Of a stretch of 64,000 nt of DNA, positions 11 to 58,126 are shown piece by piece. The position numbers were made by a program, and so were the translations under genes. Each line of letters starts with the position of its first letter. The stretch's first letter is position 1. The notes below the pieces were generated by a model that saw only the letters and a list, made by a program, of their open reading frames with translations, was not told the origin of the DNA and did no database searches. Source of the stretch: Elusimicrobiota bacterium (GTDB lineage: Bacteria; Elusimicrobiota; Elusimicrobia; Elusimicrobiales; UBA9959); contig JAGVVD010000043.1 of the NCBI GenBank assembly GCA_019135865.1, forward strand, positions 8,340-72,339, in the 5' to 3' direction.

Positions 11-1645
11 ATGACCGGTGAGAAGACGCCGCTTAAGAGCCTGACCCAGTGGCAGGCCCTGGAGAAGCATTACGCCAAGATGAGCAAGGTCCACCTGCGG
101 GACCTCTTCGCCAACGATCCGAAGCGGGGGGAGAACCTCTCGCTCGAGGCCGCCGGCATCTATTTCGACTATTCCAAACACCGCGTCACCGTCGAGACCA
201 TAAAACTGCTCTCGGCGCTGGCCCGGGCCTCCGGCCTGCGCGACTCCATCGAGGCCATGTTCAACGGCGGCAAGATAAACGTCACCGAGGGCCGCGCGGT
301 GCTGCACACAGCCCTGCGCGCCCCCAAGGGCGCGGTCGTCGCCGTCGACGGCGAGAACGTGATCCCCCAGGTGCACGAGGTGCTGGAAAAGATGGAATCC
401 TTCGCGGCCAAGGTGCGCGGCGGCAAATGGAAGGGCCATACCGGCAGGAAGATAAAGAACATCGTGAACATCGGCATCGGCGGCTCCGACCTGGGCCCCG
501 TCATGGCCTACGAGGCGCTCAAGGACTATTCTCAGCGCGGCCTGACCTTCCGCTTCGTCTCCAACATAGACGGCACGGATTTCGCCGAGGCCGTCGTCGA
601 CCTCGACCCCGCCGAGACGCTCTTCATAGTGGCCTCCAAGACCTTCACCACGCAGGAGACCATGACCAACGCCGGGACGGCCCGGGACTGGGCGCTGGCC
701 AGACTCAAGGACAAGGCGGCCATCGCGAAGCACTTCGTCGCGGTCTCGACCAACGCCGCGAAGGTCAAAGAGTTCGGCATCGATACGAAGAACATGTTCG
801 GCTTCTGGGACTGGGTGGGCGGCCGCTATTCCATGTTCTCGGCCATAGGGTTGTCGACGATGATCGCGATAGGGCCGAAGCATTTCCGCGCGATGCTGGA
901 AGGCGCGCGCGAGATGGACGAACATTACCGCACCGAGCCTTTCGACCGCAATATGCCGGTGCTGATGGGGATGCTCGGCGTGTGGTACAACAACTTCTTC
1001 GGCGCGCAGAGCATAGCGGTGCTGCCCTATGAGCAGTATCTCAAGCGCTTCCCGGCTTACCTGCAGCAGCTGACCATGGAGAGCACCGGCAAGGGCGTCA
1101 CGCTCGACGGCCGCCCGGTGGACTACCAGACCGGCCAGATCTACTGGGGCGAGCCCGGCACCAACGGCCAACACTCCTTCTACCAGCTCATACACCAGGG
1201 CACCAAGCTGATACCCTGCGACTTCATCGCCTTCTCCAAGCCCGTCCACAAGCTAGGCCGCCACCACGACCTGCTGATGGCGAACGTCTTAGCGCAGGCG
1301 GAGGCGCTGGCCTTCGGCAAGACGGCGGAGGAGCTGAAGAAAGAGGGCGTTAAGGAATGGCTGATACCGCACAAGACTTTCGAAGGCAACCGCCCGTCGA
1401 CGACCATGCTGCTCGACGAACTGACGCCGGCCGCGTTGGGGAAGCTCGTGGCTCTCTACGAGCACTGCGTGTTCACGCAGGGCGCGATCTGGCAGGTGGG
1501 GCCTTTCGACCAGTGGGGGGTGGAGCTGGGCAAGGTGCTGGCGGGCCGCATAGCCCCGGAGCTCGAAGCCAAGACCGAGCCGGAGCTCGCCCACGACTCC
1601 TCCACCAACGCCCTCATCCGCCGCTACCGCGCCTCGAAGGGGTAA
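11..1645 (+). CDS. pgi: glucose-6-phosphate isomerase
   Basis: 544-aa ORF with the [11 protein letters not shown] motif and full-length PGI-like sequence ([27 protein letters not shown]). Confidence 0.95.
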
Positions 1646-1655
1646 TTAAGGAAAA

Positions 1656-1808
1656 CTATTCGGGGGCATGGCAGGGGGCCGGCACGCAAAACACGGGCTC
1701 TCGCGCATAGCGCTCGGCCCTCCTCACTCGGCCTCCGCGCTTACGATGCTCCGGCCTCCGTGAAGGTTTTGCCGCGCCGGCCCCCTGCCTCCCCCGGCTG
1801 TCTCCTTA
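1656..1808. repeat. Structured palindromic repeat, family A, copy A1
   Basis: Starts ctattcgggggcatggc and ends cccccggctgtctcctta. The 5' arm ggcagggggccggc pairs with the 3' arm gccggccccctgcc. It shares its ends and internal blocks with the copies at 24390 and 30408. Confidence 0.8.
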
Positions 1809-1899
1809 GCCGAACACAAAAATGCTAAAGTAAAGAATTCCAAAACACCATCTTAGTTGCGTGAGAGGGATTTGTTGCAGGCACAGGAGTATTAAACCC

Positions 1900-2079
1900 A
1901 TGAAAGCTGCCGATATTCCACTTTGGGTTGTAGGCGTATCTTTGAAGTACTTGTTTTACATTTTAGGCCTAATATCTGCGGGGGCCTTAATCCTGACATT
2001 CAATCAAGTCAATGGAGAAGTTCTAAAACTTGTTATTGCATTTCCTTATTGCTTGGCTAACCTTCTACTCGATGCTTAA
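1900..2079 (+). CDS. hypothetical small membrane protein (low-GC islet)
   Basis: ATG preceded by AGGAG about 10 nt upstream. Two hydrophobic helices (IPLWVVGVSLKYLFYILGLISAGALIL; VIAFPYCLANLLL). No recognisable family. The track ORF starts at a GTG at 1861. Confidence 0.3.
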   Translation: MKAADIPLWVVGVSLKYLFYILGLISAGALILTFNQVNGEVLKLVIAFPYCLANLLLDA

Positions 2080-2410
2080 AATCGCAAAGCATAACAGTCC
2101 AGGAATCGGGGCATTTTTTTTAGTATCGCTTGCGGCAATCTTCCGTTTTGTAAAACTACTAGCCAAGTAGGCATTAGGAGCCGAAAAACGCTCCGGGGTT
2201 TCATTTTCACACCACAAGATGAGAAGGGTTGTGGAACTCTTTTCCTCTTATCTAGTGTATCCACGCAAGAAAACCAACTACCGAGATATGATCAGTTGTT
2301 TTCTACTATTGAGGCCCATCGGGTCGACTTTCTTTCTCAACAAGGAGAGCTCTATCTACCCAACAAATGATAAACTGCATTTCGGGGCATAATTAGCCCG
2401 GAGGCGAGCA

Positions 2411-2794
2411 ATGTCTGAATCGCTACTAGGCGTCCTTATTGGAGCACTGATTTCCCTGTGCGGCATATGGTTTTCGAATTATCTTCAGTACAAGCAGGCC
2501 ATTGAAAAAGAAATACGAAAGAAGCGAGAAGATGCCTATAGAGAAGTAATACTTACCCTTAACTACTTCCGATTCGGAGTCGAATCAAAAGAAGTCACAG
2601 ATAGCGGGGGCATTAATAGTCTTGCACAGAAGAACAGTACAAATCTCGTCATGTATGGGTCCCCAGAAACCATCAAACTCTATAACGAGACAGTTCGTCA
2701 GATAAAGAACCTTTCAGTCAATCACACCCTCATAAATTTTGACGCTTTACATAATCAAATTAGACGAGAACTAGGAATCCAGGGAAAACTCTAG
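2411..2794 (+). CDS. hypothetical protein with N-terminal TM helix (low-GC islet)
   Basis: 127-aa ORF with a GGAGG-like RBS (ggaggcgagcaATG). N-terminal helix LLGVLIGALISLCGIWF followed by a charged coiled segment. No family recognised. Confidence 0.5.
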   Translation: MSESLLGVLIGALISLCGIWFSNYLQYKQAIEKEIRKKREDAYREVILTLNYFRFGVESKEVTDSGGINSLAQKNSTNLVMYGSPETIKLYNETVRQIKNLSVNHTLINFDALHNQIRRELGIQGKL

Positions 2795-2890
2795 CCAATA
2801 TCGCTGATATGCCGCGTTTCTAGTCTCAATAGCAAAACTTCTTTGATGAATCAGTAGCAACTAGGGGATGACGGGAGCGGTTAGCGGTAA

Positions 2891-3091
2891 GGCTTTCCGG
2901 GCGGGGATGCGGCGAGGAACATGCGGAGCTTTTTCCCGAGCGGAATGAGGGTACCGGCACTGCCGGACGACCAAGAATGTCTGAGGCCCGAGGCGCTATG
3001 CGCCCGGGCCGAGTTCTTGGTCGGCCGAATGAAGCGAAGGTGTATCCCGGAAAAAGCGAACCGTGACGAGCGCATCCCCGCCCGGGAAGCC
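2891..3091. repeat. Structured palindromic repeat, family B, copy B1
   Basis: The outer arm ggctttccgggcggggatgcg pairs with cgcatccccgcccgggaagcc. The conserved core accggcactgccggacgaccaagaatgtctgaggcccgaggcgctatgcgcccgggccgagttcttggtcggcc is shared with the copies at about 17.2 kb and 30.7 kb. Confidence 0.8.
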
Positions 3092-3114
3092 ACGTCTATC
3101 AAATAACCATCGCT

Positions 3115-3152
3115 AGAAAAAAGAGCCCGGGTCTCCCCCGGGCTCTTTTGTT
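3115..3152 (-). terminator. Rho-independent terminator downstream of the malic enzyme gene
   Basis: On the minus strand: hairpin agagcccggg-ggag-acccgggctct followed by a tttttt run, 16 nt after the stop codon. Confidence 0.7.
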
Positions 3153-3167: not shown

Positions 3168-4514
3168 CTACGGCAGCTTGACGATGCCGGCCTTCTGGCG
3201 CACTTCCACGTCCTTCTGGGCGCGGTGAACGAAGAACTCGGCGCTGGCGCGCAGTTCCGCCTCGGTCAGAGGCTTGCGGGCGATGCCCTGCTCGATGGCC
3301 TTCAGGCCCACGGCGACGGCCTCGTCGATGAAGACCTCGGGCTCGTCCATGTGCGGCAGCAGGTAATCCTCGCTCATCTTGCCCTTCTTGACCACGTAGC
3401 CGGCCAGCGCCTCGGCGGCTGCCACGCACATCTCGTCGGTGATGGTCTTGGCCTGCACGTCCAGGGCGCCGCGGAAGATACCGGGGAAGCCCAGCGAGTT
3501 GTTGACCTGGTTGGGGAAGTCCGAGCGGCCGGTGCCGACCACCTTCGCTCCGGCCTCCTTGGCGTCCCAGGGCCACATCTCGGGGATCGGGTTGGCAGTC
3601 AGGAAGCAGATCGCGTCCTTGTTCATCGTCGCCACCCATTCCTTCTTTATGACGTCGGGGCCGGGGGTCGAGGCGGCGCTGAGCACGTCGGCGCCCTTGA
3701 GCGCGTCGTTTATTTTGCCGACGAGCTGACCGCCGTTGGTCACCTGGCACATATGCCATTTCTCGCGGTGATTCTGCAGGTCCGTGCGGCCCTTGTGCAG
3801 CGTGCCCTTGGAATCGACGTAGACGAGATTCTCGGGCTTGGCGCCATAATGCATATACAGCGTACCGATGCGGATATTGGCCGCGCCCGCGCCGAAAAGA
3901 ACTATCTTCACGTCCTTGATGTCCTTCTTGACTATCTTGAGGGCGTTTATCAGGCCGGCCAGGCAGACCGTGGCCGTGCCCTGCTGGTCGTCGTGCCAGA
4001 CCGGGATCTTCATGGTCGCGCGCAGTTCGTCTAGGATATCGAAGCACTTGGGCTGGGCTATATCCTCGAGGTTGATGCCGCCGAAGGAGGGGGCCAGCAG
4101 CTGCACGGTGCGGATTATCTCTTTTGGGTCCTTAGTGTCGAGGCAGATGGGGAAAGCGTCCACGCCGCCGAGGTACTTGAACAGCAGGCCCTTGCCCTCC
4201 ATGACCGGCAGGCCGGCCTCGGGGCCGATATCGCCCAGGCCCAGCACGCGGGTGCCGTCAGAGACCACGGCCACCATATTGCCCTTATTGGTGTGCTCGT
4301 AGACCTTCTCGGGGTTCTTGTGTATATCCTTGCACACCGCGGCCACGCCGGGGGTGTACCAGATGGCGAAATCGTCTATGTTCCGGACGCAGGACTTGGG
4401 CGTGACCTCCACCTTGCCCTTGTAGAAGGGATGGAGCTTCATCGATTCTTCGGCCGGCTTATTGGCCTTGGCCAGGAGCTCTTCCTTGGTAAGTTTCTTG
4501 GTTTCGTTAGCCAT
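3168..4514 (-). CDS. maeA: NAD(P)-dependent malic enzyme (short, non-PTA-fused type)
   Basis: 448-aa ORF with VVSDGTRVLGLGDIG and a FGAGAAN dinucleotide fold, typical of the prokaryotic small malic enzyme. Confidence 0.9.
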   Translation of the reverse strand: MANETKKLTKEELLAKANKPAEESMKLHPFYKGKVEVTPKSCVRNIDDFAIWYTPGVAAVCKDIHKNPEKVYEHTNKGNMVAVVSDGTRVLGLGDIGPEAGLPVMEGKGLLFKYLGGVDAFPICLDTKDPKEIIRTVQLLAPSFGGINLEDIAQPKCFDILDELRATMKIPVWHDDQQGTATVCLAGLINALKIVKKDIKDVKIVLFGAGAANIRIGTLYMHYGAKPENLVYVDSKGTLHKGRTDLQNHREKWHMCQVTNGGQLVGKINDALKGADVLSAASTPGPDVIKKEWVATMNKDAICFLTANPIPEMWPWDAKEAGAKVVGTGRSDFPNQVNNSLGFPGIFRGALDVQAKTITDEMCVAAAEALAGYVVKKGKMSEDYLLPHMDEPEVFIDEAVAVGLKAIEQGIARKPLTEAELRASAEFFVHRAQKDVEVRQKAGIVKLP

Positions 4515-4620: not shown

Positions 4621-4650
4621 TTGTCAGCGAACCGGCCATTTTGCTATACT
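4621..4650 (+). promoter_or_regulatory. Putative sigma70 promoter upstream of tRNA-Met
   Basis: TTGTCA, 18 nt, TATACT. An 80-nt structured leader follows before the tRNA. Confidence 0.5.
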
Positions 4651-4736
4651 TTCCCCGTTCCACCCGAAGGCGACTTCCCGTCAGTACGGGGAAGCCGCCC
4701 CCGGTGGTGAAACCTGCCCGCCATTACGGATTTAGT

Positions 4737-17030: not shown

Positions 17031-17086
17031 TTTCGGGGCAAGGGGCTCAGGCTCCCCGGGGCGCTTATGGAGAACCCTTCCGGGTG

Positions 17087-17357
17087 CTGGGGGCGGCTGT
17101 CCCCCTATGGGGACGCTTGATAGGCAGGGCTCCCTCGGCGGGCCTTCCGGAGCCACATGAGGAGCCGTCGCCCCGAGCGGAGCGCGGGCACCGGCACTGC
17201 CGGACGACCGAGAATGTCTGAGCCCGGAGCGCTATGCGCGATGGGCGAGTTCTCGGTCGGCCGCGCGCAGCAAAGGGTGGGTTCAGCGACGGCGAACCGT
17301 GGCGGAGCGAAGGCACGGCGAGGGAGCCCCTGCGGGTCCCCGGAATATTTCTCCTTA
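17087..17357. repeat. Family B repeat copy B2, preceded by a remnant of a family A 3' end
   Basis: gggggcggctgtccccctatggggacgcttgatagg mirrors the A-end/B-start junction at 30600-30635. It has the same core, accggcactgccggacgaccgagaatgtctgag...gagttctcggtcggcc. It ends in tctcctta, whose TAA on the minus strand is the stop codon of the DUF1116 gene. Confidence 0.75.
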
Positions 17358-21159: not shown

Positions 21160-21933
21160 TTAGACTTTAGCCTCCTGCCAGGGGAAAGACTTGCGCTCCC
21201 CGATGAAAGGGAAGCGCTCCCTGGTCTTGACCACCAGACCCTTGTCCAGCGGGACCTCGGAAATGAAGATACCCTCGGCCGTGCCGGAATCGATCACGAC
21301 CTTGCCCAGCGGGTCGAAGCACATGGAATTGCCGGAATACTCCAGCTTGCCCTCCACGCCTATGCGGTCCACGCCGGCGCAGTAAGCCTGGTTCTCGACG
21401 GCGCGGGCGCGCAGCAGCGTCGTCCAGTGCTCGGCGCGGCGGGCCGGCCAGGCGGCTATCGCTATGTAGATGTCCACCTCGGGGGCCTTGTTCCAGAACA
21501 GGTAGGGGAAGCGCAGGTCGAAGCAGACGGCCGGCATCACGCGCAGCCCTTCGAGTTCGAAAACGACCTGTTTGTCTCCGGCCTTGTAATGCTTGTCCTC
21601 GCCGCCGAAGGCGTAGAGGTGTATCTTGGAATACTCGTTGACCCTGTCGCCGTGGCGGTTGAGGGTTATGAGCTTGTTATAGCCGCCCTCCACACCTCCG
21701 TAGGAGACATTGATATTGTTCCGCTGCGCCAGGTCCGTGAAGAACTGCCGGTCGGAGTCGTCCAGCTCGGCCGCCGCCGTGTTCATCGTGAACCCGGACA
21801 GGGTCATCTCCGAGAATATGATCCAGTCTATCTCCGATCTGCGCGGATGGTTCTCCAGCAGTTCCGCTATCCGATTCTTGTTCGCCGCTTTGTCTTCCCA
21901 TTTGATGTCGTACTGGCACAGGGCGAGTTTCAT
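21160..21933 (-). CDS. carbon-nitrogen hydrolase family amidase/nitrilase-like enzyme
   Basis: Candidate Glu-Lys-Cys triad contexts (IIFSEMTLSGF, KIHLYAF, AVCFDLRFP). 257 aa. It overlaps the upstream gene by 4 nt and directly abuts the downstream gene. Confidence 0.8.
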   Translation of the reverse strand: MKLALCQYDIKWEDKAANKNRIAELLENHPRRSEIDWIIFSEMTLSGFTMNTAAAELDDSDRQFFTDLAQRNNINVSYGGVEGGYNKLITLNRHGDRVNEYSKIHLYAFGGEDKHYKAGDKQVVFELEGLRVMPAVCFDLRFPYLFWNKAPEVDIYIAIAAWPARRAEHWTTLLRARAVENQAYCAGVDRIGVEGKLEYSGNSMCFDPLGKVVIDSGTAEGIFISEVPLDKGLVVKTRERFPFIGERKSFPWQEAKV

Positions 21934-24338
21934 TTACTTTTGCCTCCGGCGGCCGCGAGCGCGACCTTTTCCTTGGTGACTGGCATCGACTTGATGCGCA
22001 CGCCCAGTGCGTCCGCGACGGCGTTGGCTATCAGCGGCGCGCAGGGGATCATGGTGTGCTCGCCCACGCCGCGCGCGCCGAAAGGCCCGTCCGGCTGGGG
22101 GACTTCCACGATGATGGGGACTATCTGCTCCGGCATGTCCTTGGCCGTAGGCAGCTTGTAGTCCGAGAAGTTGGGATTGAGCAGCCGGCCCTTATCGTCG
22201 TAGCGCATGTCCTCGTAGAGCACGGTGGCGAAGCCCTGCAGCAGGCCGCCGACTATCTGACCTTTGACGAGGTCGGGGTTTATCGCCTTGCCGCAGTCCA
22301 CGGCCAGCGCGACCTTCTTGATCTTCATCTTGCCGGTCTCGCGGTCCACTTCCAGTATCACGCCGGCGGCGCCGGTGGTGTAGTGGACATTGGGATGGCC
22401 GCCCTGGCCGGTCTCGGGGTCGCTGATGGCCGAGGCGAACTCGGGCATGAAAACGCCGGAGCCCATGATGGGACCGCCCTTGAAGGTGTGGTCGTCGGCC
22501 TGTATGCCGTTTATGACGAAGTCCCTGTAGGGCAGGCGGAAATGCGGCTTGGTGCGGCAGCGCACGCACTCGTCCTCGAGGTAGAGCGTGCTCTTGTCGA
22601 GGCAGTGCACGCGCTGCACCAGGTCGAAGATGCGCTCCCGCGCCTCCATAGCCGCGCGCTTGACGGCGTTGCCGCAGCCCCAGGTCACGTGCGAGCCGAC
22701 GGTCTGCCACTCATAGGGGTTTCGGTCGGTGTCGGGAGTCTCGACGCGTATGCGGGTGACCGGCATCGCCAGCACTTCGCCGGCGACCTGCGCCATGACG
22801 GTCAGCAGGCCCTGGCCCATGTCCATGCCCGAGACCAGTATGTTGACGCTGCCGTCCTCGTTGAACTTGAGGAACGCGCTGGAACTGGCGTTGGGCGGCA
22901 TGGCGGGGGCTTTCCAGAAGCAGACCAGCGATTTGCCGACGGCCTTGCGCGGATCCTTCGACTTCTCCTTCACGCCCCACCGTATCTCTTTTTCGACCTT
23001 CTCTATGGCCTCGCGTATGCCGGTCGGGTTCATGTGCGCGCCGTAGGGCAGGGTCTCGCCCTCCTTGATGGCGTTGAGCTTGCGGAACTCGACGGGGTCG
23101 ACGCCCAGCTTCTCCGCCATGCGCGTGATATGCGATTCCAGTCCGAAGAGGAACTCGGAATAGCCGAAGCCGCGGTAGGCGCCGCCGGGGGGGAGGTTGG
23201 TGTAGGTGCAGACCGAGTCTATGCTGATATTGTCGACGCGGTAGGGGCCGCTGGCGGAGAGGCCGGCGGCGTTGACGACGTTGGCGCCGTATTCGACGTA
23301 GGCGCCGGCGTCCCAGTAAAGCCTGTAGTCGAGCGCGGTTATCTTGCCGTTCTTCGTCACGCCCAGCTTTATCTTCGTCGTGACGCCCAGGCGCTGGTAG
23401 GTGTTGTAGAACTCCTGCGCGCGGCTCCAGAGCAGCTTGACCGGGCGGCCGGGCACGGCCACGGCCAGCGCGGCGGCGATGATCTCCATCGTGACTCCGG
23501 CCTTCCCGCCGAAGCCGCCGCCGATATAGGTGCTCACCACGCGCACGTCCTTGTGCGCTATGCCGAAGGCCTTGAGGGTCTCGGCGAAGACGTGGCGCTG
23601 GGTGAACGGCGACTGGGACGAGGTCCACATGGTCAGGCGGCCCGAGGCGTCGTAGAGGCCGATGGCCGAGTGGTTCTCTATGGCGCAATGCGCGTAGCGG
23701 GGAACCGTGTAGGTATCCTCCATGACGAGGTCGGCCTGACGGAAGCCTTTCTCCGGGTCGCCCTTGCGTATCTTGCGCCAGTGCGCGATATTGGTGCCCG
23801 GCTTGGGAAAGAACCACGGGACATGGGTGTAGCTCTTGAGGTCGGGGTGGACGAGGGGGGCGCCCTTCTCGAGGGCTTTGACCGGGTCCAGGACGGCCGG
23901 CAGGTCCTCGTACTCGACTTTCACCAGCGCGGCGCCGCGCAGGGCGGTCTTGGCGTCGGTGGCGACGACGGCGGCGACCTGCTCGCCGACGAAACGGACG
24001 CGGTCGTTGGCGAAGATGTAGCGGTCGTTCATGTAGAGGCCGAACTTGTGGACGAAGTTGCGGCCGGTGACGACTTTCACGACGCCTCGCAGTTTCTCTG
24101 CGGCGGAGGTGTCTATGGACTTTATCCTGGCGTGGGCGCGGGGGCTTTCGACCAGCGCCGCGTAGAGGAGGCCGGGGCCGAACTCCAGGTCGTCGGTGTA
24201 CTTGGCGGCGCCGCGTATCTTCTCCCAGCCGTCTATACGCTGCACGCTCTTGCCGACGACCCGCAGTCCGTCGTCCTGCGTGCTCACCTTCGCCTTAACG
24301 CCCTTCTTCGGTTTGGAGATAATCTTGTCCATGTCCAT
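21930..24338 (-). CDS. xanthine dehydrogenase/aldehyde oxidase-family molybdopterin-binding large subunit
   Basis: About 800 aa with the typical a/b-hammerhead and MoCo-binding segments (GGGFGGK, GVGEHTMIP-like C-terminus). The start is set to the ATG after a GAGG RBS. The track uses a GTG 12 nt upstream. Confidence 0.9.
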   Translation of the reverse strand: MDMDKIISKPKKGVKAKVSTQDDGLRVVGKSVQRIDGWEKIRGAAKYTDDLEFGPGLLYAALVESPRAHARIKSIDTSAAEKLRGVVKVVTGRNFVHKFGLYMNDRYIFANDRVRFVGEQVAAVVATDAKTALRGAALVKVEYEDLPAVLDPVKALEKGAPLVHPDLKSYTHVPWFFPKPGTNIAHWRKIRKGDPEKGFRQADLVMEDTYTVPRYAHCAIENHSAIGLYDASGRLTMWTSSQSPFTQRHVFAETLKAFGIAHKDVRVVSTYIGGGFGGKAGVTMEIIAAALAVAVPGRPVKLLWSRAQEFYNTYQRLGVTTKIKLGVTKNGKITALDYRLYWDAGAYVEYGANVVNAAGLSASGPYRVDNISIDSVCTYTNLPPGGAYRGFGYSEFLFGLESHITRMAEKLGVDPVEFRKLNAIKEGETLPYGAHMNPTGIREAIEKVEKEIRWGVKEKSKDPRKAVGKSLVCFWKAPAMPPNASSSAFLKFNEDGSVNILVSGMDMGQGLLTVMAQVAGEVLAMPVTRIRVETPDTDRNPYEWQTVGSHVTWGCGNAVKRAAMEARERIFDLVQRVHCLDKSTLYLEDECVRCRTKPHFRLPYRDFVINGIQADDHTFKGGPIMGSGVFMPEFASAISDPETGQGGHPNVHYTTGAAGVILEVDRETGKMKIKKVALAVDCGKAINPDLVKGQIVGGLLQGFATVLYEDMRYDDKGRLLNPNFSDYKLPTAKDMPEQIVPIIVEVPQPDGPFGARGVGEHTMIPCAPLIANAVADALGVRIKSMPVTKEKVALAAAGGKSK

Positions 24339-24356
24339 ATTTCGCCTCACTCGCTT

Positions 24357-24386
24357 ACTTTAAATCGTCCCTGCCCGCGATGTCAA
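24357..24386 (-). promoter_or_regulatory. Putative promoter for the XDH large-subunit operon at the edge of repeat A2
   Basis: Minus strand reads TTGACA, 18 nt, TAAAGT. The -35 lies 3 nt from the ctattc end of repeat A2, and the predicted leader of about 12 nt contains GAGG. Confidence 0.4.
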
Positions 24387-24389
24387 GAA

Positions 24390-24592
24390 CTATTCGGGGC
24401 CAGCGGCGGTCGCCACGAAAAAACGCGCTCGACACACCGTGCTCGCGCTCCTTCCTCGGCCCTCGCGCTCGTATGCGCCTCCGCATCCTCGGGATGCGAT
24501 TCCACCGGCTAGCTTCGGCGCATACTCCGTAAGCTCAGGCCTTCGGACGGTTTTTCTTAGGCGACCCGCCGCCGCCCCCGACTGTCTCCTCC
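24390..24592. repeat. Structured palindromic repeat, family A, copy A2
   Basis: ctattcgggg...cccccgactgtctcctcc. The copy-specific stem gcggcggtcgcc pairs with ggcgacccgccgc. The internal blocks gattccaccggcta and ctccgtaagc are shared with A3. Confidence 0.8.
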
Positions 24593-24609
24593 GTATTACA
24601 AATCCAGCA

Positions 24610-25230
24610 CTACTCTATTCCCTCAAGGTTGAGCGGGATATTCTCTACTCTTGTTGGATGAATATCCACTAAAATCCCTTTGGCAATTGTCTGGACCCGA
24701 GGATTACGATATGAGTCGGAGGGGGTATAGGAAGCACTCACTTCCCTTACTCTGGCGAGAACCGCAATTTCTGAATTTACGGATTTCTCCATCACAACCC
24801 CGGATTCCTTAAGCAATTTACGAAGCTTTTCCTTTGGATATTGAAGCTCAAAATAAAACCTGTCAGAATAAATCTGACTGCGCCATTCTTTCGCATCGCC
24901 ACCGCGCAATACAACCAAGCAATGGGTTTCGCTGTGAATCGATATATCAGCGATTTTGCCAATTATCAGAATAGGGGACTCCGACAGCAACACCCTTTCC
25001 AGTTCAATGGTCGGGGGGGTCCGACCTAGTCCATCTAACCAGTTCAGCCTGGCACCTGCTCGTGAAGCCCAATCTATCACCAACTTCTGAGACAATTTTT
25101 CTATCTCCCTCGCCTCAAGTGCCGTTTGTTTGCCTTTCAGAGAAAGAACATACCACTCTCTCCCCAAAAAGGCCACAATTCCAAGAATAATGACCACCCA
25201 AATAACCTTACTTGCCTTCATTTGATACAT
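24610..25230 (-). CDS. hypothetical TM-anchored protein, third gene of the cyclase cassette
   Basis: 206 aa with an AAGGA RBS. One N-terminal helix (VIWVVIILGIVAFLG) and then a soluble region of about 170 aa with no motif I recognise. About 40% G+C. Confidence 0.6.
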   Translation of the reverse strand: MYQMKASKVIWVVIILGIVAFLGREWYVLSLKGKQTALEAREIEKLSQKLVIDWASRAGARLNWLDGLGRTPPTIELERVLLSESPILIIGKIADISIHSETHCLVVLRGGDAKEWRSQIYSDRFYFELQYPKEKLRKLLKESGVVMEKSVNSEIAVLARVREVSASYTPSDSYRNPRVQTIAKGILVDIHPTRVENIPLNLEGIE

Positions 25231-25247
25231 CCGTATTCCTTACCCAC

Positions 25248-25889
25248 TTATTCCATGAGCTCAATCTCTAAAAAAGGGATTTCTAGTCTCACACACTTAT
25301 AGTCGCGTCCACCATTTATATTCCGCAACGTATATTTTTCTCGTTTTGGGAGCCACTGTTTGGCATTTGCTTTGCAAAAAATCATCTCATACGCCGCACC
25401 TGACATTAGGACTTGATTCTGCGGGCGCGTTACGTTATGCTTAACCAGTTCCTGCAAACGACAGGCAATATTTATTGGTCTTCCCACAAACTCGACTCGC
25501 CCCATCATCACAATCTTACGGAGAAATCCAGAGTCAACACCACAGGTGATTCCTAGGACCGCTGGTTGACTTTCCAACGACGGAAGGACCTTAATTTTAA
25601 GGGTTTCATCAACAAATTCAGCAAGTTTTGGAATAAATCCCCTAAGCTCTGCGCCAGCATCCGCAGCAAATAGCAGGATCCACCCGTCTCCCAAAAACTT
25701 GTACGTCTCGAACCTATACCCCGCTGAAGACTCCAGCAGAAAGTTCTTAATCCGAATGAGAAAGTTATAGTATTGAGCCAACGAGTCGTTCAGCTTCATG
25801 CCCTCCAAAATATTAGAAGAGGAGCATATGTCAAATACCACGACTATCTTTCTCGCCACCTTTTGCTCTGGACGACGCTGGATTTTCAT
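25248..25889 (-). CDS. stand-alone class III nucleotidyl (adenylate/guanylate-type) cyclase domain protein
   Basis: 213 aa. VVFDICSSS carries the first metal Asp. YKFLGDGWILLF carries a Lys and the second metal Asp. GVDSGFL...VEFVGRPINIACRLQ carries the Asn/Arg transition-state pair. No sensor or regulatory domain. Confidence 0.75.
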   Translation of the reverse strand: MKIQRRPEQKVARKIVVVFDICSSSNILEGMKLNDSLAQYYNFLIRIKNFLLESSAGYRFETYKFLGDGWILLFAADAGAELRGFIPKLAEFVDETLKIKVLPSLESQPAVLGITCGVDSGFLRKIVMMGRVEFVGRPINIACRLQELVKHNVTRPQNQVLMSGAAYEMIFCKANAKQWLPKREKYTLRNINGGRDYKCVRLEIPFLEIELME

Positions 25890-25894
25890 AGAGA

Positions 25895-26218
25895 TTAAAC
25901 CTTACGCTTTAAGATTCCCTCATCTTCCAATCGCAGCTTAGCTACAACATGCTGCTTTAACAATTGCAGAACAAGTCCAACCCCAAGAAAGAGCAAAACC
26001 CCTCCAGTTAGGACGGCCCACAATATGAGTGGGGAGAATATCACCCATTCATTGCCTTTGGTTAACCGTTCAAACCAAGGCTTCTCTCCCAAGTACAGAA
26101 CAAGTGGAATCATTGGAACCATCTGCAAGAACGCAAAATGAGTTATAAAATCAACAACCTTCTCATGCCTTTTACCAAAAGCGTAATATTTATCTGCCAA
26201 TGTAACAATCAGTCGCAC
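25895..26218 (-). CDS. hypothetical small integral membrane protein, first gene of the cyclase cassette
   Basis: 107 aa with a GTG start 4 nt after AAGGGGA. Two to three hydrophobic helices (FITHFAFLQMVPMIPLVLYL; VIFSPLILWAVLTGGVLLFLGVGLVLQLL). A 5-nt gap separates it from the cyclase gene. Confidence 0.55.
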   Translation of the reverse strand: MRLIVTLADKYYAFGKRHEKVVDFITHFAFLQMVPMIPLVLYLGEKPWFERLTKGNEWVIFSPLILWAVLTGGVLLFLGVGLVLQLLKQHVVAKLRLEDEGILKRKV

Positions 26219-26260
26219 AATATCCCCTTAATACCCACCAGCCCCGCGATGCCATGACGC

Positions 26261-26288
26261 ATCGTATCGTCAGGATTAGAGATGCCAA
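26261..26288 (-). promoter_or_regulatory. Putative promoter of the cyclase cassette
   Basis: Minus strand reads TTGGCA, 16 nt, TACGAT, about 40 nt upstream of the GTG start at 26218. Confidence 0.4.
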
Positions 26289-26309
26289 TTCCACATCTCC
26301 ATTTGCCGC

Positions 26310-26603
26310 CTAGCCTTTCGCGTCGAGCAGGTAATTGTTGTTGCGGTTGGCGGCGACGAGTTCGCGGACCTCGTAGTCCTCGAAGCCGTCGGCGATGAAG
26401 GGGTCCTGCTTCGCCATGCCCTCTGCTTCTTCCTGCGACTGGGCGCGCAGGACCACCATGCCGCCTTTGCCGTCCTTGAAAGGGCCGCAGACCACCAGCC
26501 GGCCGTTATCATCGAGCGACCGCAGGTGCTCCACGTGCCGCTGTATCACCGACGGATCGAACTTTTTGCCTTCCTTCATCTTCATCGTTATCACGTATAC
26601 CAT
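26310..26603 (-). CDS. YciI-family protein
   Basis: 97 aa. The pattern HVEHLRSLDDNGRLVVCGPF...GGMVVLRAQSQEEAEGMAKQDPF is typical of the YciI-like fold. Confidence 0.7.
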   Translation of the reverse strand: MVYVITMKMKEGKKFDPSVIQRHVEHLRSLDDNGRLVVCGPFKDGKGGMVVLRAQSQEEAEGMAKQDPFIADGFEDYEVRELVAANRNNNYLLDAKG

Positions 26604-26622
26604 GTCCCCGTCCCCCTTGCGC

Positions 26623-27282
26623 TCAGTCTGCCGAAACTATCTTTTTAAAATCGCCGTTCTCATCGAGGTAATAGACAATAGCGGCTTTCCCCCAAATTAC
26701 CACCTCAAAACCGTCGTTCTTCAACTCGACTTCCTCCAGTTCCGACTCCTCGTTCGGGACCTGGAAACGGCCCTTTTTGCGCAATTGCAGATAAGACCAT
26801 GTACCGATACGCTTGGACTCCGCTTCGGATAACGGAATCCTGGAAAACACCCTGACAGCGTACGAAAGGCCGCGATTCTTGGGATCATAACTGGAAAGTA
26901 GAATGAGTGTCATCGAAAAGTTGCCGTCATCACCTATTAAAACGGAATCCGTCATCCCGTCCCCGTTAAAATCGCCAAATACGGCGGCAGGGGATTGATA
27001 TGTCGTGTAAGGATAATAGCGCCTGATCTCTTCCGGATAGTAAACGGCGGGACGCAATTCAAAATTCTTAGAGTAGGCATGGACAGCCTCATGCATCTTC
27101 GGAGACAGAAACACGGTATGGGTTGAAAATTCTATCCGGCTCCCTTTATCCGGATAAGGGTTTTTCTGAAGCGTTTCTCCGGCAACCGCCAGTGGGACAC
27201 AAAAAAACCACATTACCCCCGCAGCGAAGAACATGCTGTGCTGTTTGACAACGCACAATCTGACCATTCCCACTCGCATCAT
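26623..27282 (-). CDS. hypothetical exported protein with one FG-GAP/VCBS-like motif
   Basis: Signal-peptide-like N-terminus (FFAAGVMWFFCVPLAVAGE) and FGDFNGDGMTDSVLIGDD. The start is trimmed to MMRVG to avoid overlap with the upstream gene. Intermediate G+C. Confidence 0.5.
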   Translation of the reverse strand: MMRVGMVRLCVVKQHSMFFAAGVMWFFCVPLAVAGETLQKNPYPDKGSRIEFSTHTVFLSPKMHEAVHAYSKNFELRPAVYYPEEIRRYYPYTTYQSPAAVFGDFNGDGMTDSVLIGDDGNFSMTLILLSSYDPKNRGLSYAVRVFSRIPLSEAESKRIGTWSYLQLRKKGRFQVPNEESELEEVELKNDGFEVVIWGKAAIVYYLDENGDFKKIVSAD

Positions 27283-27320
27283 TTTCCTTTCACGGTTTCG
27301 ACAATGTCTTCCATTATAAC

Positions 27321-27818
27321 TCACAGTCCCTTCGGCGGCAGTAATTCGAATTCTTCCCGCAGGTCCAGCGCCGCGGCCCATTTACGCATATAGTCAAAAT
27401 CGAGTTTGTCGCCGCTCAGCACGATTATACCCCGGCAGTCGCGCAGTTGCCGCTCGGAGCCGCCCGCCGACTTCATCCAGCGGAGCTTGGAAAGGACGAG
27501 ATCCTCCGGGGCTATCACCCAGACCGGGCCACCGGCAAGCTCCAGCTTTCTGCGGCGGGAAAATTTTTCCTGTTCATATCGGTCTCCGGCATCCAGAACG
27601 GCAAAATCCACCTTAAAAGACGTGGCGTTAAAAATCACGTTGAACATACGTTTTCTGGATACGGCTTCGCGCACGTCATCCTCATCTATATGCGCCTCGT
27701 CCTTGAGAGAGGAAACGAGGCTCTGAATATCAGAGGGGGCTATCTGCACTACGACATCGATATCCGCCGTAGTACGTACCTCGCCCCAGAATGCCACGGC
27801 TGAACCGCCGGTCACCAT
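27321..27818 (-). CDS. putative minimal nucleotidyltransferase (Pol-beta superfamily fold)
   Basis: GGSAVAFWGEVRTTADIDVVV fits the G[SG]-x(9-13)-D-x-D pattern, with a downstream KVDFAV Asp. In-frame upstream codons (ETLSWITAKLERSGLPY) look coding but contain no ATG, GTG or TTG. Confidence 0.5.
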   Translation of the reverse strand: MVTGGSAVAFWGEVRTTADIDVVVQIAPSDIQSLVSSLKDEAHIDEDDVREAVSRKRMFNVIFNATSFKVDFAVLDAGDRYEQEKFSRRRKLELAGGPVWVIAPEDLVLSKLRWMKSAGGSERQLRDCRGIIVLSGDKLDFDYMRKWAAALDLREEFELLPPKGL

Positions 27819-27859
27819 GTACGGCAGCCCCGACCTTTCCAGCTTGGCGGTGATCCAGC

Positions 27860-28063
27860 TCAGTGTTTCAGCGAATAGCTTTTGCGTAACCTTTCCTTGA
27901 CCAGTTCATCCAGTTCCGCCTCGGTAGCGGCGGGGTTATAGTATTTTATGCCGGCGCGCATGGATTCGAACTGCGCGTCCATAAGGTCGGACATCATGGC
28001 GAAACGCTGCTCCGGGGTCTTTCCCCTGAGCAGTTCCAATTGTTTCGCCGAGGCCTTGTCCAT
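27860..28063 (-). CDS. hypothetical small helical protein upstream of the nucleotidyltransferase
   Basis: 67 aa (MDKASAKQLELLRGKTPEQRF...). The start is trimmed from the 141-aa track ORF, whose 5' part overlaps the 2Fe-2S subunit gene. Confidence 0.4.
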   Translation of the reverse strand: MDKASAKQLELLRGKTPEQRFAMMSDLMDAQFESMRAGIKYYNPAATEAELDELVKERLRKSYSLKH

Positions 28064-28068
28064 GACGA

Positions 28069-28539
28069 TTACTTCCCTTTTACCGTCTCTTCGATGGCTT
28101 CCACGATGGGCTCGTAACCTGTGCAGCGGCAGAGATTGCCGGCTATGGCTTCCTTGATCTCGTGCTTGCCCGCCTTCGGGTTCTTCTCGAGCAACTCGGT
28201 GGCCGAAAGTATGATGCCGGGCGCGCAGAAGCCGCACTGGAAGGCGTTCTTCCGGTGGAACTTCTCCTGGAGCTTCCGGGTCCACTTGCGGCTGGTATTG
28301 GCGCCCTCTAGCGTGACCAGTTCCGCGCCATCGGCCTCGACGGCCAGCGCCAGGCAGGAGCGCACGGTGCGGCCGTCCATGATGATGGTGCAGGTGCCGC
28401 AGTCGCCGCGGTCACAGCCGACCTTGGGGCTCTTGATGCCGAGCCGGTCGCGCAGCACGTCGATGAGGACGTCGCTGGGCTCCACCTCTATGGAGACCCG
28501 CTCGCCGTTGAGTTTGAAACTTATCGGGTGTTTTTTCAT
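28069..28539 (-). CDS. (2Fe-2S)-binding small subunit of an XDH/CO-dehydrogenase-family enzyme
   Basis: Cys clusters GCDRGDCGTCT, CGFCAPG and CRCTGY. 156 aa. Confidence 0.92.
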   Translation of the reverse strand: MKKHPISFKLNGERVSIEVEPSDVLIDVLRDRLGIKSPKVGCDRGDCGTCTIIMDGRTVRSCLALAVEADGAELVTLEGANTSRKWTRKLQEKFHRKNAFQCGFCAPGIILSATELLEKNPKAGKHEIKEAIAGNLCRCTGYEPIVEAIEETVKGK

Positions 28540-30280: not shown

Positions 30281-30407
30281 TTTATCCTCCGTAAAATCCG
30301 TCGCCCGGGAAGCCGTCCGGCCGCCCGCCATTGATATCTTATTAATAGAAATTCTAACAAATGACCGCACCTAAATAAAGCCGTTACAGGCCGTCAAGCA
30401 GGAATAA

Positions 30408-30618
30408 CTATTCCGGGGGCATGGCGTGCCCTCACCTCGCAAAAACAGGGTCGCGCACACCGTGCGCGCCCTTCCCGTTCTCGCCGCTCGCGCTCGTCCG
30501 CGTCTCCGGCCCCGCAGGATAGTGATTCCACCGGCTACCTCCGACGCGGACTCCGTAAGCGAGCGGCTCCGAAGGGTTTTGCTCCGGTGAGGGCACGCCT
30601 CCCCCGGTTGTCTCCTTA
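30408..30618. repeat. Structured palindromic repeat, family A, copy A3
   Basis: ctattccgggggcatggc...cccccggttgtctcctta. The copy-specific stem ggcgtgccctcacc pairs with ggtgagggcacgcc. Confidence 0.8.
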
Positions 30619-30851
30619 TGGGACGCTTAACGGGCAAGGCTTCATCGCCGGGCCTTCCGAAGCCACATCGGAGGCTTTCCCCAAGCGGAGCGAGGGAACC
30701 GGCACTGCCGGACGGGCATGAATGTCTGAGGCCCGAGGCGCTATGCGCCCGGGCCGAGTTCGGCCGAACCCGTGGCGGAGCGAAGGCCCGGCGAGGGAGC
30801 CTGAGGCGTTTTTTGTGTGAGCATCTGCCATGCCCCCGGCATAAGTATTCC
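30619..30851. repeat. Family B repeat copy B3, directly abutting A3
   Basis: Shared start tgggacgctt(a/g)a..ggc and core accggcactgccggacg...atgtctgaggcccgaggcgctatgcgcccgggccgagtt. The right end gccatgcccccggcataagtattcc is an inverted copy of the A3 left end. Confidence 0.8.
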
Positions 30852-52579: not shown

Positions 52580-52984
52580 GTGAAGAAATTCCCTCTTTCC
52601 CGCGCCATGAGGCTCAAGGGCCGCAAGAACTTCTCCCGCGTCTTCGAGACGGGGGGGAAGGCGGCGACGAAAAGCCTGGTGATGTGGAACGCGGCGCCCC
52701 CGGAAGGAAATGTTCTCCCGGCGGACCGGCGCATGGGCCTGGCGGTGAGCCGCAAGGCCGGCGGCGCGGTGAGGCGCAACAGGATAAAGAGGATATTGAG
52801 AGAAGCTTACAGGCTCAACAGGTTTCGACTGAAGGATGGGGCCTGGTTCATAGTTTACCCGAAGGCCGGCTGCGGGCTCGACTCGCTGGCCGGGGCGAAA
52901 AAGGAGCTGCTGCAGGCCTGGGAACGGGCCGGGCTGCTCGCGGACCCCGGGGCGGAGCCCGGCCGGAACGGAAGAAAGGCATGA
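52580..52984 (+). CDS. rnpA: ribonuclease P protein component
   Basis: GTG start. LKGRKNFSRVF and an RNRIKRILREAYR (RNR-motif) segment. Follows rpmH. Confidence 0.88.
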   Translation: MKKFPLSRAMRLKGRKNFSRVFETGGKAATKSLVMWNAAPPEGNVLPADRRMGLAVSRKAGGAVRRNRIKRILREAYRLNRFRLKDGAWFIVYPKAGCGLDSLAGAKKELLQAWERAGLLADPGAEPGRNGRKA

Positions 52985-53181
52985 CGGCTTTCATAAAGGC
53001 ATTCTACGCCTCGCTGCGGCCCATACTGGGTCCGCGCGCCTGCCGCTTCCACCCGACATGCTCGGCATACGCCTTCGAGGCGCTGAAAAAGCACGGCCCG
53101 GTGAAAGGGCTCGCGCTCGGCGCACGCCGTATATTGAACTGCCATCCTTTCAACCCGGGCGGCTACGACCCGGTGCCCTGA
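52981..53181 (+). CDS. yidD: membrane protein insertion efficiency factor YidD
   Basis: 66 aa with CRFHPTCSAYA. It overlaps the rnpA stop by 4 nt. Confidence 0.9.
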   Translation: MTAFIKAFYASLRPILGPRACRFHPTCSAYAFEALKKHGPVKGLALGARRILNCHPFNPGGYDPVP

Positions 53182-53212
53182 AACCTGCGCGGCCGGCCTT
53201 CAGGAGGCCACG

Positions 53213-54757: not shown

Positions 54758-54802
54758 TATTTTTACGGGGAGCCCCAGGGCTTCCCGCGGAGGTAAAGCA
54801 AG

Positions 54803-55903
54803 ATGAAAGAGCTGAAAATTGAGGCCAAGACCATCCAGGACGCGGTGGAAAAAGGCCTCGGAGAAATGTCCCTGAGAAGGGACCAGGTGGAGGTCGTGGT
54901 GGTATCCGAGGGCAAGAAAGGCCTTTTCGGGTTAGGCGCCAGACCCGCCTGCGTGGTGCTGCGCGAGAAGCGCTGGGGCGGTGCCGACGAGGACCGCGGC
55001 CGCGGGCGCGGGCGCGGCGACAGGCATGAACGGGGGGAGGAGCGGGGACGCGGCGGCGAGCGCGGCGAACGCGGCGGCAGAGGCCGCCGGGACCGCGGCG
55101 ACCGCGGCGGCGAGCGCGGCGACAGAGGGGACCGCGGCGGCAGGGGCGACAGGCCCCGGCGCGACAGGTCCGAAGGCCGCCCGCCCAGGCAGGAGATACG
55201 CAGGCCCGAAGGCCCGCCGCCGGAGCTGGAACCCGCGGCGATGGAGATAGCCAGGCCGGAGGACACCGCCGAGCACGCGAAACAGGCGGTCTCCAAGATA
55301 ATGGAGTACATGGGCCTGCCCTGCGAGATACAGGAAGTGAAGACCCTCGAAGACGGCAAGATACTGGTGAAGTTCGAATCCGCCGAGAGCGCCATGCTGC
55401 TCGAGGATAACGCCAGGCCGATGCAGGCCATGCAGTACCTGGTGAGCTCGATAGTCAACAAGGGCCGCTCCGGCAAGCTGGCGGTGCAGCTCGACACGGG
55501 CGGGTACTGGGAGCGCAAGGAGAAAGAACTGGACCGCAAGGTGGAGTTCGCCGTGAAGACGGTGAAGGCCACCGGCAGGCTGTTCCGCCTGGAGGCCATG
55601 CCGGCCCCGATGCGCAAGTACGTGCACAACCTGGTCAAGACCTCCTATCCCGAAGTCGAGACCGTCTCGGAAGGCGAAGGGAAATGGCGCAAGGTAGTGC
55701 TGCGCCCCGCCGCCGGCAGGCCCGCCGAGGCGCCGGCCGCCAGGCCCGAAGCCAGGACCGAGGCCCCGGCCCCGGCCGTAACGACCCCGGCTCCGCAGCC
55801 GGAAGTTCAGGCCCCGGCCGCTCCGGAGCCCGAGGCCAAGTCCCCGGAAGCGGAGACCGGCAACGAGGCCGCCCCCGTCAACGGGGAGAACGAGAGCCGC
55901 TGA
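54803..55903 (+). CDS. jag: Jag/KhpB-type RNA-binding protein (Jag_N, KH, R3H) with an inserted Arg-Gly-rich segment
   Basis: MKELKIEAKTIQDAVEKGL...GLFGLG is the Jag N-domain. The KH-like core follows, then an R3H-like MRKYVHNLV. An (E/D)RG(D/G)RGG repeat block of about 70 aa lies between the N-domain and KH. Confidence 0.8.
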   Translation: MKELKIEAKTIQDAVEKGLGEMSLRRDQVEVVVVSEGKKGLFGLGARPACVVLREKRWGGADEDRGRGRGRGDRHERGEERGRGGERGERGGRGRRDRGDRGGERGDRGDRGGRGDRPRRDRSEGRPPRQEIRRPEGPPPELEPAAMEIARPEDTAEHAKQAVSKIMEYMGLPCEIQEVKTLEDGKILVKFESAESAMLLEDNARPMQAMQYLVSSIVNKGRSGKLAVQLDTGGYWERKEKELDRKVEFAVKTVKATGRLFRLEAMPAPMRKYVHNLVKTSYPEVETVSEGEGKWRKVVLRPAAGRPAEAPAARPEARTEAPAPAVTTPAPQPEVQAPAAPEPEAKSPEAETGNEAAPVNGENESR

Positions 55904-55982
55904 TCCCCTTCGGGTTCGGCGGACGAAGACCGGGCGGGCGCCTTTCAGAAAGGCCCCGCCCGCGTCCATAAGAGGAGAAGGA

Positions 55983-57353: not shown

Positions 57354-57366
57354 AGAGGGGACGACG

Positions 57367-58110: not shown

Positions 58111-58126
58111 GGAAAACGAAGGAAAA

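Follow-up and report, generated by a model that had tools for sequence, protein, structure and literature searches.

How does a kilobase of low-G+C DNA that encodes no recombinase come to begin at the exact last nucleotide of a hairpin repeat, behind a housekeeping gene of a G+C-rich bacterial genome? The question is raised by a 64,000-nucleotide stretch of an Elusimicrobia genome (GenBank assembly GCA_019135865.1, contig JAGVVD010000043.1, positions 8,340 to 72,339; referred to here as the window), which has a G+C content of 64.1% overall. Between pgi, the gene for glucose-6-phosphate isomerase, and a convergent malic-enzyme gene, the window contains a copy of a hairpin repeat that we call A (copy A1), an islet of low-G+C DNA, and a copy of a second structured repeat that we call B (copy B1). 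We tentatively propose that accessory genes here fill a slot whose bounds are dispersed structured repeats, and that these repeats serve as portable flanks; for the slot and the mechanism taken together we put the probability at roughly 0.45. The variable part of the arrangement is the DNA joined to the 3′ terminus of A, which may be B, a fragment of A, or 1-3.5 kb of low-G+C genes without a mobility gene of their own.

The conserved left flank of the locus is pgi (positions 11 to 1645, plus strand, 63.5% G+C), a 544-residue open reading frame (ORF) whose orthologues at the related loci L031 and L035 match PF00342 (PGI). A1 (1647 to 1808, plus strand) starts 2 nucleotides past the pgi stop codon. 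It belongs to the A subfamily of 155-165 nucleotides and is matched by the nhmmer profile over 1654-1808 (E=1e-29), with its TAAGGA terminus extending to 1647. The termini read TAAGGAAAAC... and ...CTGTCTCCTTA, the sequence reaching position 1808 is ...CCCCCGGCTGTCTCCTTA, and the closing stem covaries among copies. The islet that follows (1809 to 2867) was described in the original prediction, made from the letters of the window and a list of its ORFs, as about 1.07 kb of low-G+C DNA with small membrane-protein ORFs. It measures 1059 bp at 41.8% G+C between flanks of about 64%, and it has three hydrophobic ORFs on the plus strand, each with a 19-residue segment of mean Kyte-Doolittle hydropathy of at least 1.8. 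The first encodes 59 residues (1900 to 2079; 72 residues if the same frame is read from a GTG at 1861), the second 46 residues (2030 to 2170; it overlaps the first in another frame and its coding status is uncertain), and the third 127 residues with an N-terminal membrane anchor and a charged coil (2411 to 2794).

To the right of the islet lies B1 (2868 to 3095, plus strand, 64.0% G+C), a copy of the multi-helix B element of about 200 nucleotides. The profile match covers 2881-3095 (nhmmer E=1.5e-63) and is preceded by a diverged leader from about 2868; the closing helix is formed by GGCTTTCCGGGCGGGGATGCG and CGCATCCCCGCCCGGGAAGCC. B1 has no right-hand tail and no right-end inverted repeat of the kind seen in B3, another copy in the window. 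After a further 23 AT-rich nucleotides (3096 to 3118) comes a bidirectional intrinsic terminator, a stem-loop with a T run (3119 to 3150), that is common to pgi and the malic-enzyme gene and is kept in L050, L031 and the strain of run X1. The gene for NADP-dependent malic enzyme (3168 to 4514, minus strand, convergent with pgi) forms the conserved right flank; it encodes 448 residues, and its Elusimicrobia homologues are 92-85% identical.

The islet-free state of the locus, which the original prediction had proposed to seek in related genomes, was found in a metagenome contig, L050, that is about 93-94% identical to the window in pgi and malic enzyme (94.1% over the last 627 nucleotides of pgi, 93.0% over the malic-enzyme gene at the nucleotide level) and carries the same A in the same place. 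From the 3′ end of pgi to the A terminus the two sequences differ by 3 mismatches in 209 aligned columns. Identity ends exactly at 1808/1809 and resumes at AAAAGAGCCCGGG, at about position 3119. Between these breakpoints L050 has 72 nucleotides, made up of a 63-nucleotide 3′-arm fragment of another A subfamily (ending ...CCCGGAATAGTTCTCC) and a few bases, and the same short islet-free form is present in a related strain of three activated-sludge runs (X1, X2 and X4). The breakpoints thus define a variable block from 1809 to 3118 that comprises the islet, B1 and the 23 nucleotides after it. This block replaces 72 nucleotides and is not a clean insertion, and the empty state is A followed by a tail, not A joined to B. 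The window's own strain occurs in no indexed sequencing run, the best run sharing 0.17 of sampled words.

These comparisons separate what holds in the original prediction from what does not. Its account of the anatomy was accurate, from the end of A1 at 1808 to the B copy on the right of the islet, the missing right-end inverted repeat of B1, and the contact of A3 with B3 at 30618/30619. Its claim that the same repeat halves bracket the islet stands on the left, where the A1 boundary is exact, and falls on the right, where B1 belongs to the variable block and provides no fixed bracket. The A3/B3 pair had been taken as the empty counterpart of the filled site. We rejected it as the literal empty allele because A3 is of a different A subfamily from A1 and B3 of a different B subfamily from B1, and L050 gives the true empty state. 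In B1 the leader, which normally adjoins an A end, is present in diverged form, so the locus may have passed through an earlier stage in which A1 and B1 were directly joined.

Allelic variation among close strains is directly observed at this locus. In L054, another close relative (also in L053 and L045, from three metagenomes), the order is malic enzyme, an Rce1-like gene, a gene for a 221-residue protein, A, 1.25 kb of about 41% G+C, B, and the pgi stop codon. This is a further A-cargo-B unit, independent of that in the window, with ORFs on both strands that are unrelated to those of the window, a B of different subtype, and the opposite orientation relative to pgi. The L054 islet is present at the depth of its flanks in runs X44 and X5. 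Runs X17 and X9 contain flanks about 99% identical to those of L054 with neither islet nor B; in this third allele, characterised against L054, a 1701-nucleotide contig links A to the end of pgi through a different stretch of up to about 1.5 kb, as estimated from the length of that contig. At L031 and L033 the DNA after the same A encodes an S41 peptidase, and the stop codon of this peptidase gene overlaps the A terminus; a minimal A likewise abuts the Rce1-like gene. As a separate observation, the 221-residue/Rce1-like pair occupies the pgi/malic-enzyme interval in some relatives, and in L054 a 2′-dG-II purine riboswitch (RF03165; 4832-4902, minus strand, 81.5 bits) lies upstream of it.

The exact breakpoint recurs elsewhere. 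Downstream of an ABC-F ATPase gene, L048 and L055 carry 1.0 kb of 48% G+C between a plus-strand A and an inverted A, both with their 3′ ends toward the cargo, which contains a 110-residue ORF (no Pfam match; a possible SNase-type motif by eye) and a DUF2188 gene. At the orthologous ABC-F site L044 has an A of another subfamily, a partial A arm, and then different low-G+C DNA that starts exactly from the arm terminus. In the window itself, A2 (24382 to 24592, plus strand; long A subfamily, nhmmer E=7e-57), located 30 nucleotides from the start of an opposite-strand Mo-subunit gene, ends with ...CTGTCTCCTCC and is followed directly, as had been noted, by low-G+C DNA with a cyclase gene, here measured as 1.7 kb at 44.6% G+C including a class III cyclase homologue. 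This DNA opens a mosaic island (24593 to 28066, minus strand) that splits a xanthine-dehydrogenase-type operon between the Mo-subunit gene (21930-24350) and the 2Fe-2S subunit gene (28069-28539) and has no B at its far end.

In order from A2, the island encodes a transmembrane (TM) protein, the cyclase and a second TM protein (the 44.6% G+C portion), a YciI-like protein, a 252-residue protein, and a DUF6036/AbiEii-like nucleotidyltransferase with an Rv0078B-like antitoxin. In a comparison that reaches to position 8000 of the L010 locus, the flanks are 91-92% identical in DNA and the cyclase is only 56% identical. The island is mosaic relative to L010, with the cyclase/TM cassette and the nucleotidyltransferase-antitoxin pair differing and the YciI-like and 252-residue genes 91% conserved. 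The cyclase has 213 residues, its homologues are named class 3 adenylate cyclase by their sources, and the closest database homologue (54% identity) is on a contig of 38% G+C; the homologues recovered did not include the L010 cyclase. With TM proteins on both sides the layout is Pycsar-like; the cyclase/TM cassette had no PADLOC or Pfam match.

A tabulation of what adjoins A ends, suggested in the original prediction, places this recurrence on a quantitative footing. Among 33 distinct A 3′ ends, 19 adjoin B and 5 adjoin low-G+C DNA, defined as below 50% G+C over the next 300 nucleotides, a value found in 4.4% of background windows; low-G+C DNA adjoins none of 31 A 5′ flanks. For the 14 A ends not joined to B the enrichment has P=2e-4, or P=0.014 without the window's two cases, and no solo copy of B has low-G+C DNA upstream. 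A 3′ ends are thus enriched next to compositionally foreign DNA, and together with the allele comparisons this sustains part of the original prediction, which held the A/B junction to be an integration site or a cargo boundary: the A end is a recurrent sharp border of foreign DNA (5/33 versus 0/31), and L054 supplies another A-cargo-B unit. The landmark, however, is the A 3′ terminus and not the A/B junction, since cargo may close with an inverted A (L048) or with no repeat (the A2 island).

The nature of A and B bears directly on how such a border could arise. An exact search with the B core returned 30 loci in seven Elusimicrobia metagenome-assembled genomes (MAGs), and an exact search with the A end returned 21 metagenome loci; shuffles give an expectation of 0 chance matches for the B core and the A start. 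In profile searches the commonest arrangement is A joined directly to B, with CTCCTTA followed immediately by TGGGACGC, and often a tail after B. The tail repeats the A 5′ arm in inverted orientation, so the A-B-tail composite has terminal inverted repeats of 25-50 bp. The canonical A/B junction is present in 12 of 30 loci anchored on B, and another 6 metagenome loci share it. Other arrangements include solo A, solo B with neither A nor tail, a minimal A of about 40 nucleotides, A followed by a tail and lacking B (L050), a pair of A copies that meet at their 3′ ends (L058), and A beside an inverted B (L038 and L052). A, B and A fragments join end to end at exact termini.

A is a hairpin element of 40-215 nucleotides with 7-nucleotide inverted termini, TAAGGAR... 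and ...YTCCTTA (...CCCCCGGYTGTCTCCTTA). Its basal stem is CCGGGGG/CCCCCGG, and its interior varies in length with pairing kept by compensatory changes. B is a separate multi-helix element of about 200 nucleotides with a 20-bp closing helix. The start of A usually lies a few nucleotides at most from the stop codon of a same-strand gene; the left flank of A is usually (A/T)TAA, and its own 5′ TAA is often the upstream gene's stop codon. Of 25 genes upstream of A, 20 share its strand, and of 32 genes downstream of B, 25 are convergent, which places the repeats mostly in sense orientation in 3′ untranslated regions (3′ UTRs) between convergent genes. At the other end, the TTA that closes A or the tail repeatedly doubles as the TAA stop of the convergent gene (window 17355-17357; L031 7441-7443 and 9405-9407).

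The consensus structure of B contains 53 pairs, 27 of them with compensatory double changes, and compensatory pairs number 20 of 54 in the long A subfamily and 17 of 46 in the short one. On the plus strand G-U pairs exceed A-C pairs in B (79:14) and in A (26:7 long, 14:3 short). In both repeats the covariation is strong enough to imply selection on the folded strand. Metatranscriptome contigs, of low depth and unstranded, span A joined to B and are weak evidence for its transcription. At the gathering threshold Rfam 15 gave no match to A or B in the window, L012, L017 and L054, and E-value mode gave chance-level matches only. Viral contigs contained 0 matches to the B core and 0 to the A end, and thus gave no indication of a phage attachment site. 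From the Rfam result and the literature searched, A and B appear to be two undescribed structured repeat families in Elusimicrobia.

The cargo itself is largely anonymous. The 127-residue islet protein is effectively an orphan: a word-indexed search of 5.8 billion protein clusters found only the protein itself, and an exhaustive phmmer search of 1.8 billion representatives found only proteins of similar size with weak similarity to it (E 1e-7 to 1e-3). In a separate search it had one weak AbiN match (E=0.005). None of the islet proteins, the 59- and 46-residue products included, matched a Pfam or PADLOC family, and the islet DNA had no match in phage or plasmid collections. Cargo elsewhere is of the same anonymous kind (DUF2188 and small uncharacterised proteins). 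The 53 ORFs called in the window are housekeeping or matchless and none has an integrase or transposase Pfam match, in agreement with the earlier reading that the window holds no integrase; a Pfam scan of selected cargo ORFs likewise found no recombinase family. Multi-copy proteins, used as a proxy for transposases, were absent from the loci of 11 source assemblies and the window (about 480 kb). No Y1 transposase was seen in the loci examined, which are fragments of draft MAGs whose whole genomes were not searched.

We consider a repeat-bounded accessory-gene slot with portable A and B flanks to be the best explanation for these observations. A is a hairpin element like repetitive extragenic palindromic (REP) sequences or miniature inverted-repeat transposable elements (MITEs), and A and B would act as portable flanks, such that foreign DNA bracketed by A and B, or by two copies of A, could be placed at, or swapped between, A-marked sites. 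One route would depend on whatever mobilises the repeats in trans, by analogy with cassettes that lie between MITEs. Alternatively, or additionally, the repeats and the core genes beside them could recombine homologously and so spread alleles among strains. Portable flanks would account for the joining of host-type repeats to low-G+C cargo that has no mobility genes, for units in either orientation, for switches of subfamily, and for replacement in place of clean insertion. The anatomy, exact breakpoints, recurrence and strain-level allelic variation are observed directly; that the repeats move, how many events took place and in which direction, and that an enzyme acts on them are what we infer.

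Several results weigh against this interpretation. No cognate transposase or autonomous element with A/B ends was found in the window, the 59 loci (about 480 kb) or viral contigs, and mobility of A and B is consequently argued only from their nested arrangements, their termini and the number of copies. The right terminal inverted repeat is missing from the A-cargo-B copy of the window and from that of L054, and thus neither is now a complete transposon-like unit. The right breakpoint in the window is at the terminator and not within a repeat, the far end of the A2 island has no repeat, and the TA target duplication expected by a MITE model is seen at only about half of the ends, where it often coincides with stop codons. 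The counts are small, with three of the five low-G+C junctions coming from two loci. Finally, portable flanks do not explain how low-G+C DNA was first joined to host-type repeats.

A different division of labor, in which the repeats are targets and not vehicles, is conceivable but doubtful. The 3′ foot of folded A (...CCCCCGGYTGTCTCCT followed by TA) would be the attachment site of a site- or structure-specific enzyme encoded in trans, and candidates of the IS110/IS1111 or IS200/IS605 type (IS, insertion sequence), a tyrosine recombinase or an RNA-guided enzyme might insert at this point cargo as well as B modules and A fragments. Every comparison puts the breakpoint precisely at the A terminus, and in L044 it is the terminus of a second, partial A arm at which cargo begins. 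Cargo ends show no common motif, with the A2 island, the L031 S41 gene and the X17 allele as one-sided cases, and folding is strand-specific, all consistent with an enzyme acting at the hairpin foot. An IS-like end is found in B at one position in three contigs, which implies that some element in these genomes targets these repeats, and REP hairpins are established IS targets (PMC1525189, PMC3333891, PMC12288879). However, an exact A terminus follows by definition if A itself moved. No recombinase was seen in the window, the cargo or the roughly 480 kb of loci, no cargo has a direct repeat of a core sequence at its far end, and the event in the window replaced 72 nucleotides and was not a clean insertion.

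It is also possible, and in our judgment unlikely, that no dedicated mechanism is involved. The pgi/malic-enzyme, ABC-F and coxS/coxL intergenic regions would be ordinary hotspots in which accessory genes are gained and lost through homologous recombination in the flanks or through illegitimate events, A and B would be conserved functional 3′-UTR modules, and the A...B bracket would have no mechanistic meaning; boundaries would look exact because only insertions that spare A and B survive. Gene content at pgi/malic-enzyme does vary widely, L031 having an S41 peptidase, a 234-residue protein and an Rce1-like protein, and L035 having a C11 peptidase with neither A nor B in the interval. A is more conserved than the adjacent coding DNA (3 mismatches in 209 columns versus 94% identity in the pgi 3′ end), and the intergenic space is packed, with A starting from the stop codon and B or tail from the A end, consistent with modules under selection. 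A survival filter does not readily yield a left breakpoint in the window at the first base after A, although a 63-nucleotide and apparently dispensable tail was available to be interrupted. Nor would it readily produce the same exactness at independent loci, including that at the partial A arm, the asymmetry of low-G+C DNA between the 3′ and 5′ sides of A, or cargo closed by a second, inverted A.

It is rather improbable, on present evidence, that A and B provide the cis-acting sites for a cassette-capture system of Elusimicrobia, so far undescribed and comparable in function to integrons or pdif modules. A would be the acceptor hairpin of such a system, B would travel with cassettes as a conserved structured module of RNA or single-stranded DNA, perhaps an RNA of the guide or bridge type, and a recombinase encoded elsewhere would dock small defence-like and membrane-protein cassettes at the hairpin foot behind housekeeping genes.

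Integron-like behaviour proper, raised in the original prediction, would make A and/or B attC-type sites and the islets cassettes of an integron integrase encoded elsewhere, as in solitary attC sites or clusters of attC sites lacking integron integrases (CALIN). An integron is defined by IntI beside attI and CALIN by at least 2 clustered attC sites; attC sites are 57-141 bp long with the organization R″-L″...L′-R′ and RYYYAAC/GTTRRRY cores, and the cassettes mostly hold a single promoterless ORF, are co-oriented, and carry each its own attC. The A/B loci share with these systems sites with conserved ends and a variable paired interior that fold on one strand, small cassettes without a recombinase, and content that differs between close strains. 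However, they fail every defining feature tested, and the reading is disfavoured and very improbable. There is no IntI-like or other recombinase Pfam match among the window's 53 ORFs and selected cargo ORFs, the attC cores are absent from A and B, A reaches 215 nucleotides, and B is a branched 200-nucleotide fold. The cargo can comprise several ORFs on both strands (L054), each site holds one block with no tandem arrays, and flanking repeats may be inverted, as where the L048 cargo is closed by an inverted A. A group II intron remnant, a retron non-coding RNA and a riboswitch were rejected in the absence of a reverse transcriptase and of a consistent downstream gene.

Known repeat systems offer closer parallels. 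REP sequences and the bacterial interspersed mosaic elements (BIMEs) that they form are palindromes of 20-40 nucleotides with more than 100 copies per genome, and the gene for the REP-associated tyrosine transposase (RAYT) is flanked by REPs. The A/B repeats resemble those of Enterobacteria and Pseudomonas in being abundant intergenic hairpins past stop codons that form mosaics in either orientation, have strand-specific structure, and serve as IS targets (PMC1525189, PMC3333891, PMC12288879). They differ in that A is up to 215 nucleotides long with termini like terminal inverted repeats and a labile interior, in that the 200-nucleotide multi-helix domain of B has no REP counterpart, and in that transposase-free gene cassettes of 1-3.5 kb are found at the hairpin end, with no RAYT or other enzyme identified in these draft MAG fragments. 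MITEs and mobile insertion cassettes (MIC231 of Bacillus cereus; the qnrS2 cassette of Aeromonas plasmids, PMC5444012) are similarly non-autonomous, bounded by inverted repeats and without transposase, some with passenger genes, and the L048 cargo between two inverted A copies resembles such a composite. Terminal inverted repeats are present at both ends in the canonical A-B-tail form and in L048, and absent on the right in A1-islet-B1 and in the L054 unit; unlike MITEs, therefore, cargo-bearing A...B copies lack a right terminal repeat, and no parent IS was found. Further, the cargo is always at one internal junction, the A 3′ terminus, and the ends are large conserved folded structures.

The IS110/IS1111 elements that have separable RNA modules in REPs (ISPpu9 with Ssr9, PMC12288879) present a repeat hairpin as a landing site and a structured RNA module that also occurs as solo copies. 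The likeness of A and B to these is one of resemblance only, since no IS110-type recombinase was found here and guide loops in B are not demonstrated. Palindrome-associated transposable elements derived from IS200/IS605 have subterminal hairpins without terminal inverted repeats, insert 3′ of a fixed tetra- or pentanucleotide, and depend on a Y1 (HUH) transposase. The long terminal inverted repeats of the A/B composites are atypical for that family. By analogy, the A/B system would work like REP/BIME mosaics combined with MITE-flanked cassettes, with a likeness to integron cassettes in outline only, and it is not a demonstrated member of any of these classes. That a hairpin terminus should recur as the junction for cassettes behind Elusimicrobia core genes appears to be undescribed in the literature searched.

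An important consequence is that two structured repeat families can now be defined in a poorly studied phylum and tied to the strain-level turnover of accessory genes behind core genes, including a cyclase cassette that splits a metabolic operon. If A and B are portable flanks, or A an attachment site, this would explain how small defence-like cassettes are shuffled in uncultured, transposase-poor genomes, and would provide a searchable metagenome marker for such islets. If a dedicated enzyme exists, it would represent a new site-specific DNA insertion system with an easily recognised target.

The remaining copies in the window illustrate the range of A and B arrangements. At 17069 to 17357 (plus strand) a minimal A of about 40 nucleotides is joined to B2 and a short tail, whose terminal TTA is the stop codon of a convergent allG-like gene; an orthologous copy is present in L014. 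The composite at 30400 to 30850 (plus strand) has the complete canonical form, with A3 at 30400-30618, B3 at 30619-30817 and the tail at 30818-30850. This 450-nucleotide unit is closed by a perfect terminal inverted repeat of 13 bp and folds far better than shuffled sequence (z = -8.5). Its orthologue in L029 has the same orientation and a full A, and that in L010 (2130-2440) is inverted relative to the flanking genes, with A cut to the minimal form of about 40 nucleotides. B3 has a 38-nucleotide internal deletion at 30761-30762 (segment GTGCCCGGCCGAGCG...AAAGCC) by which one side of a conserved helix is lost; all other full B copies keep the segment. The three A copies and three B copies of the window are all on the plus strand.

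Both repeats are themselves interrupted by other elements. A third repeat of about 105 nucleotides with three hairpins (GTGAGGACCTGCGGTGCAGGTCC...GCGGGTTATGCGTGCC) is nested in B at one fixed position in L013 (88-190), L004 (about 4630-4720) and L015 (about 1840-1920), and occurs in the opposite orientation within A in L028 (about 305-410) and L046 (about 1950-2045); a shorter relative interrupts B in L001. An IS-like terminus (...GTGAGTATAATAAAACCTGGTTATACA, with the end ...AAACCTGGTTATACA) abuts B at one internal position, immediately before AGCTTTTTCCCC, in L013 (13-39), L016 (3-29) and L019 (79-105). All three contigs begin there, as a multi-copy element targeting B would give, and loose ends also occur at window position 2930 in run X2.

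Two further features of the window lie apart from the repeats. The G+C content dips to 0.52 at 61500-63000, around the gap between a peptidase-MA gene (61139-62242) and an mraW-like gene (62707-63894), in a region without A or B. At 52580-60536 the window carries rnpA, yidC, jag, mnmE, an unidentified 247-residue ORF, mnmG and rsmG, and a run of rnpA-yidC-jag-mnmE-mnmG-rsmG is typical of the vicinity of a replication origin.

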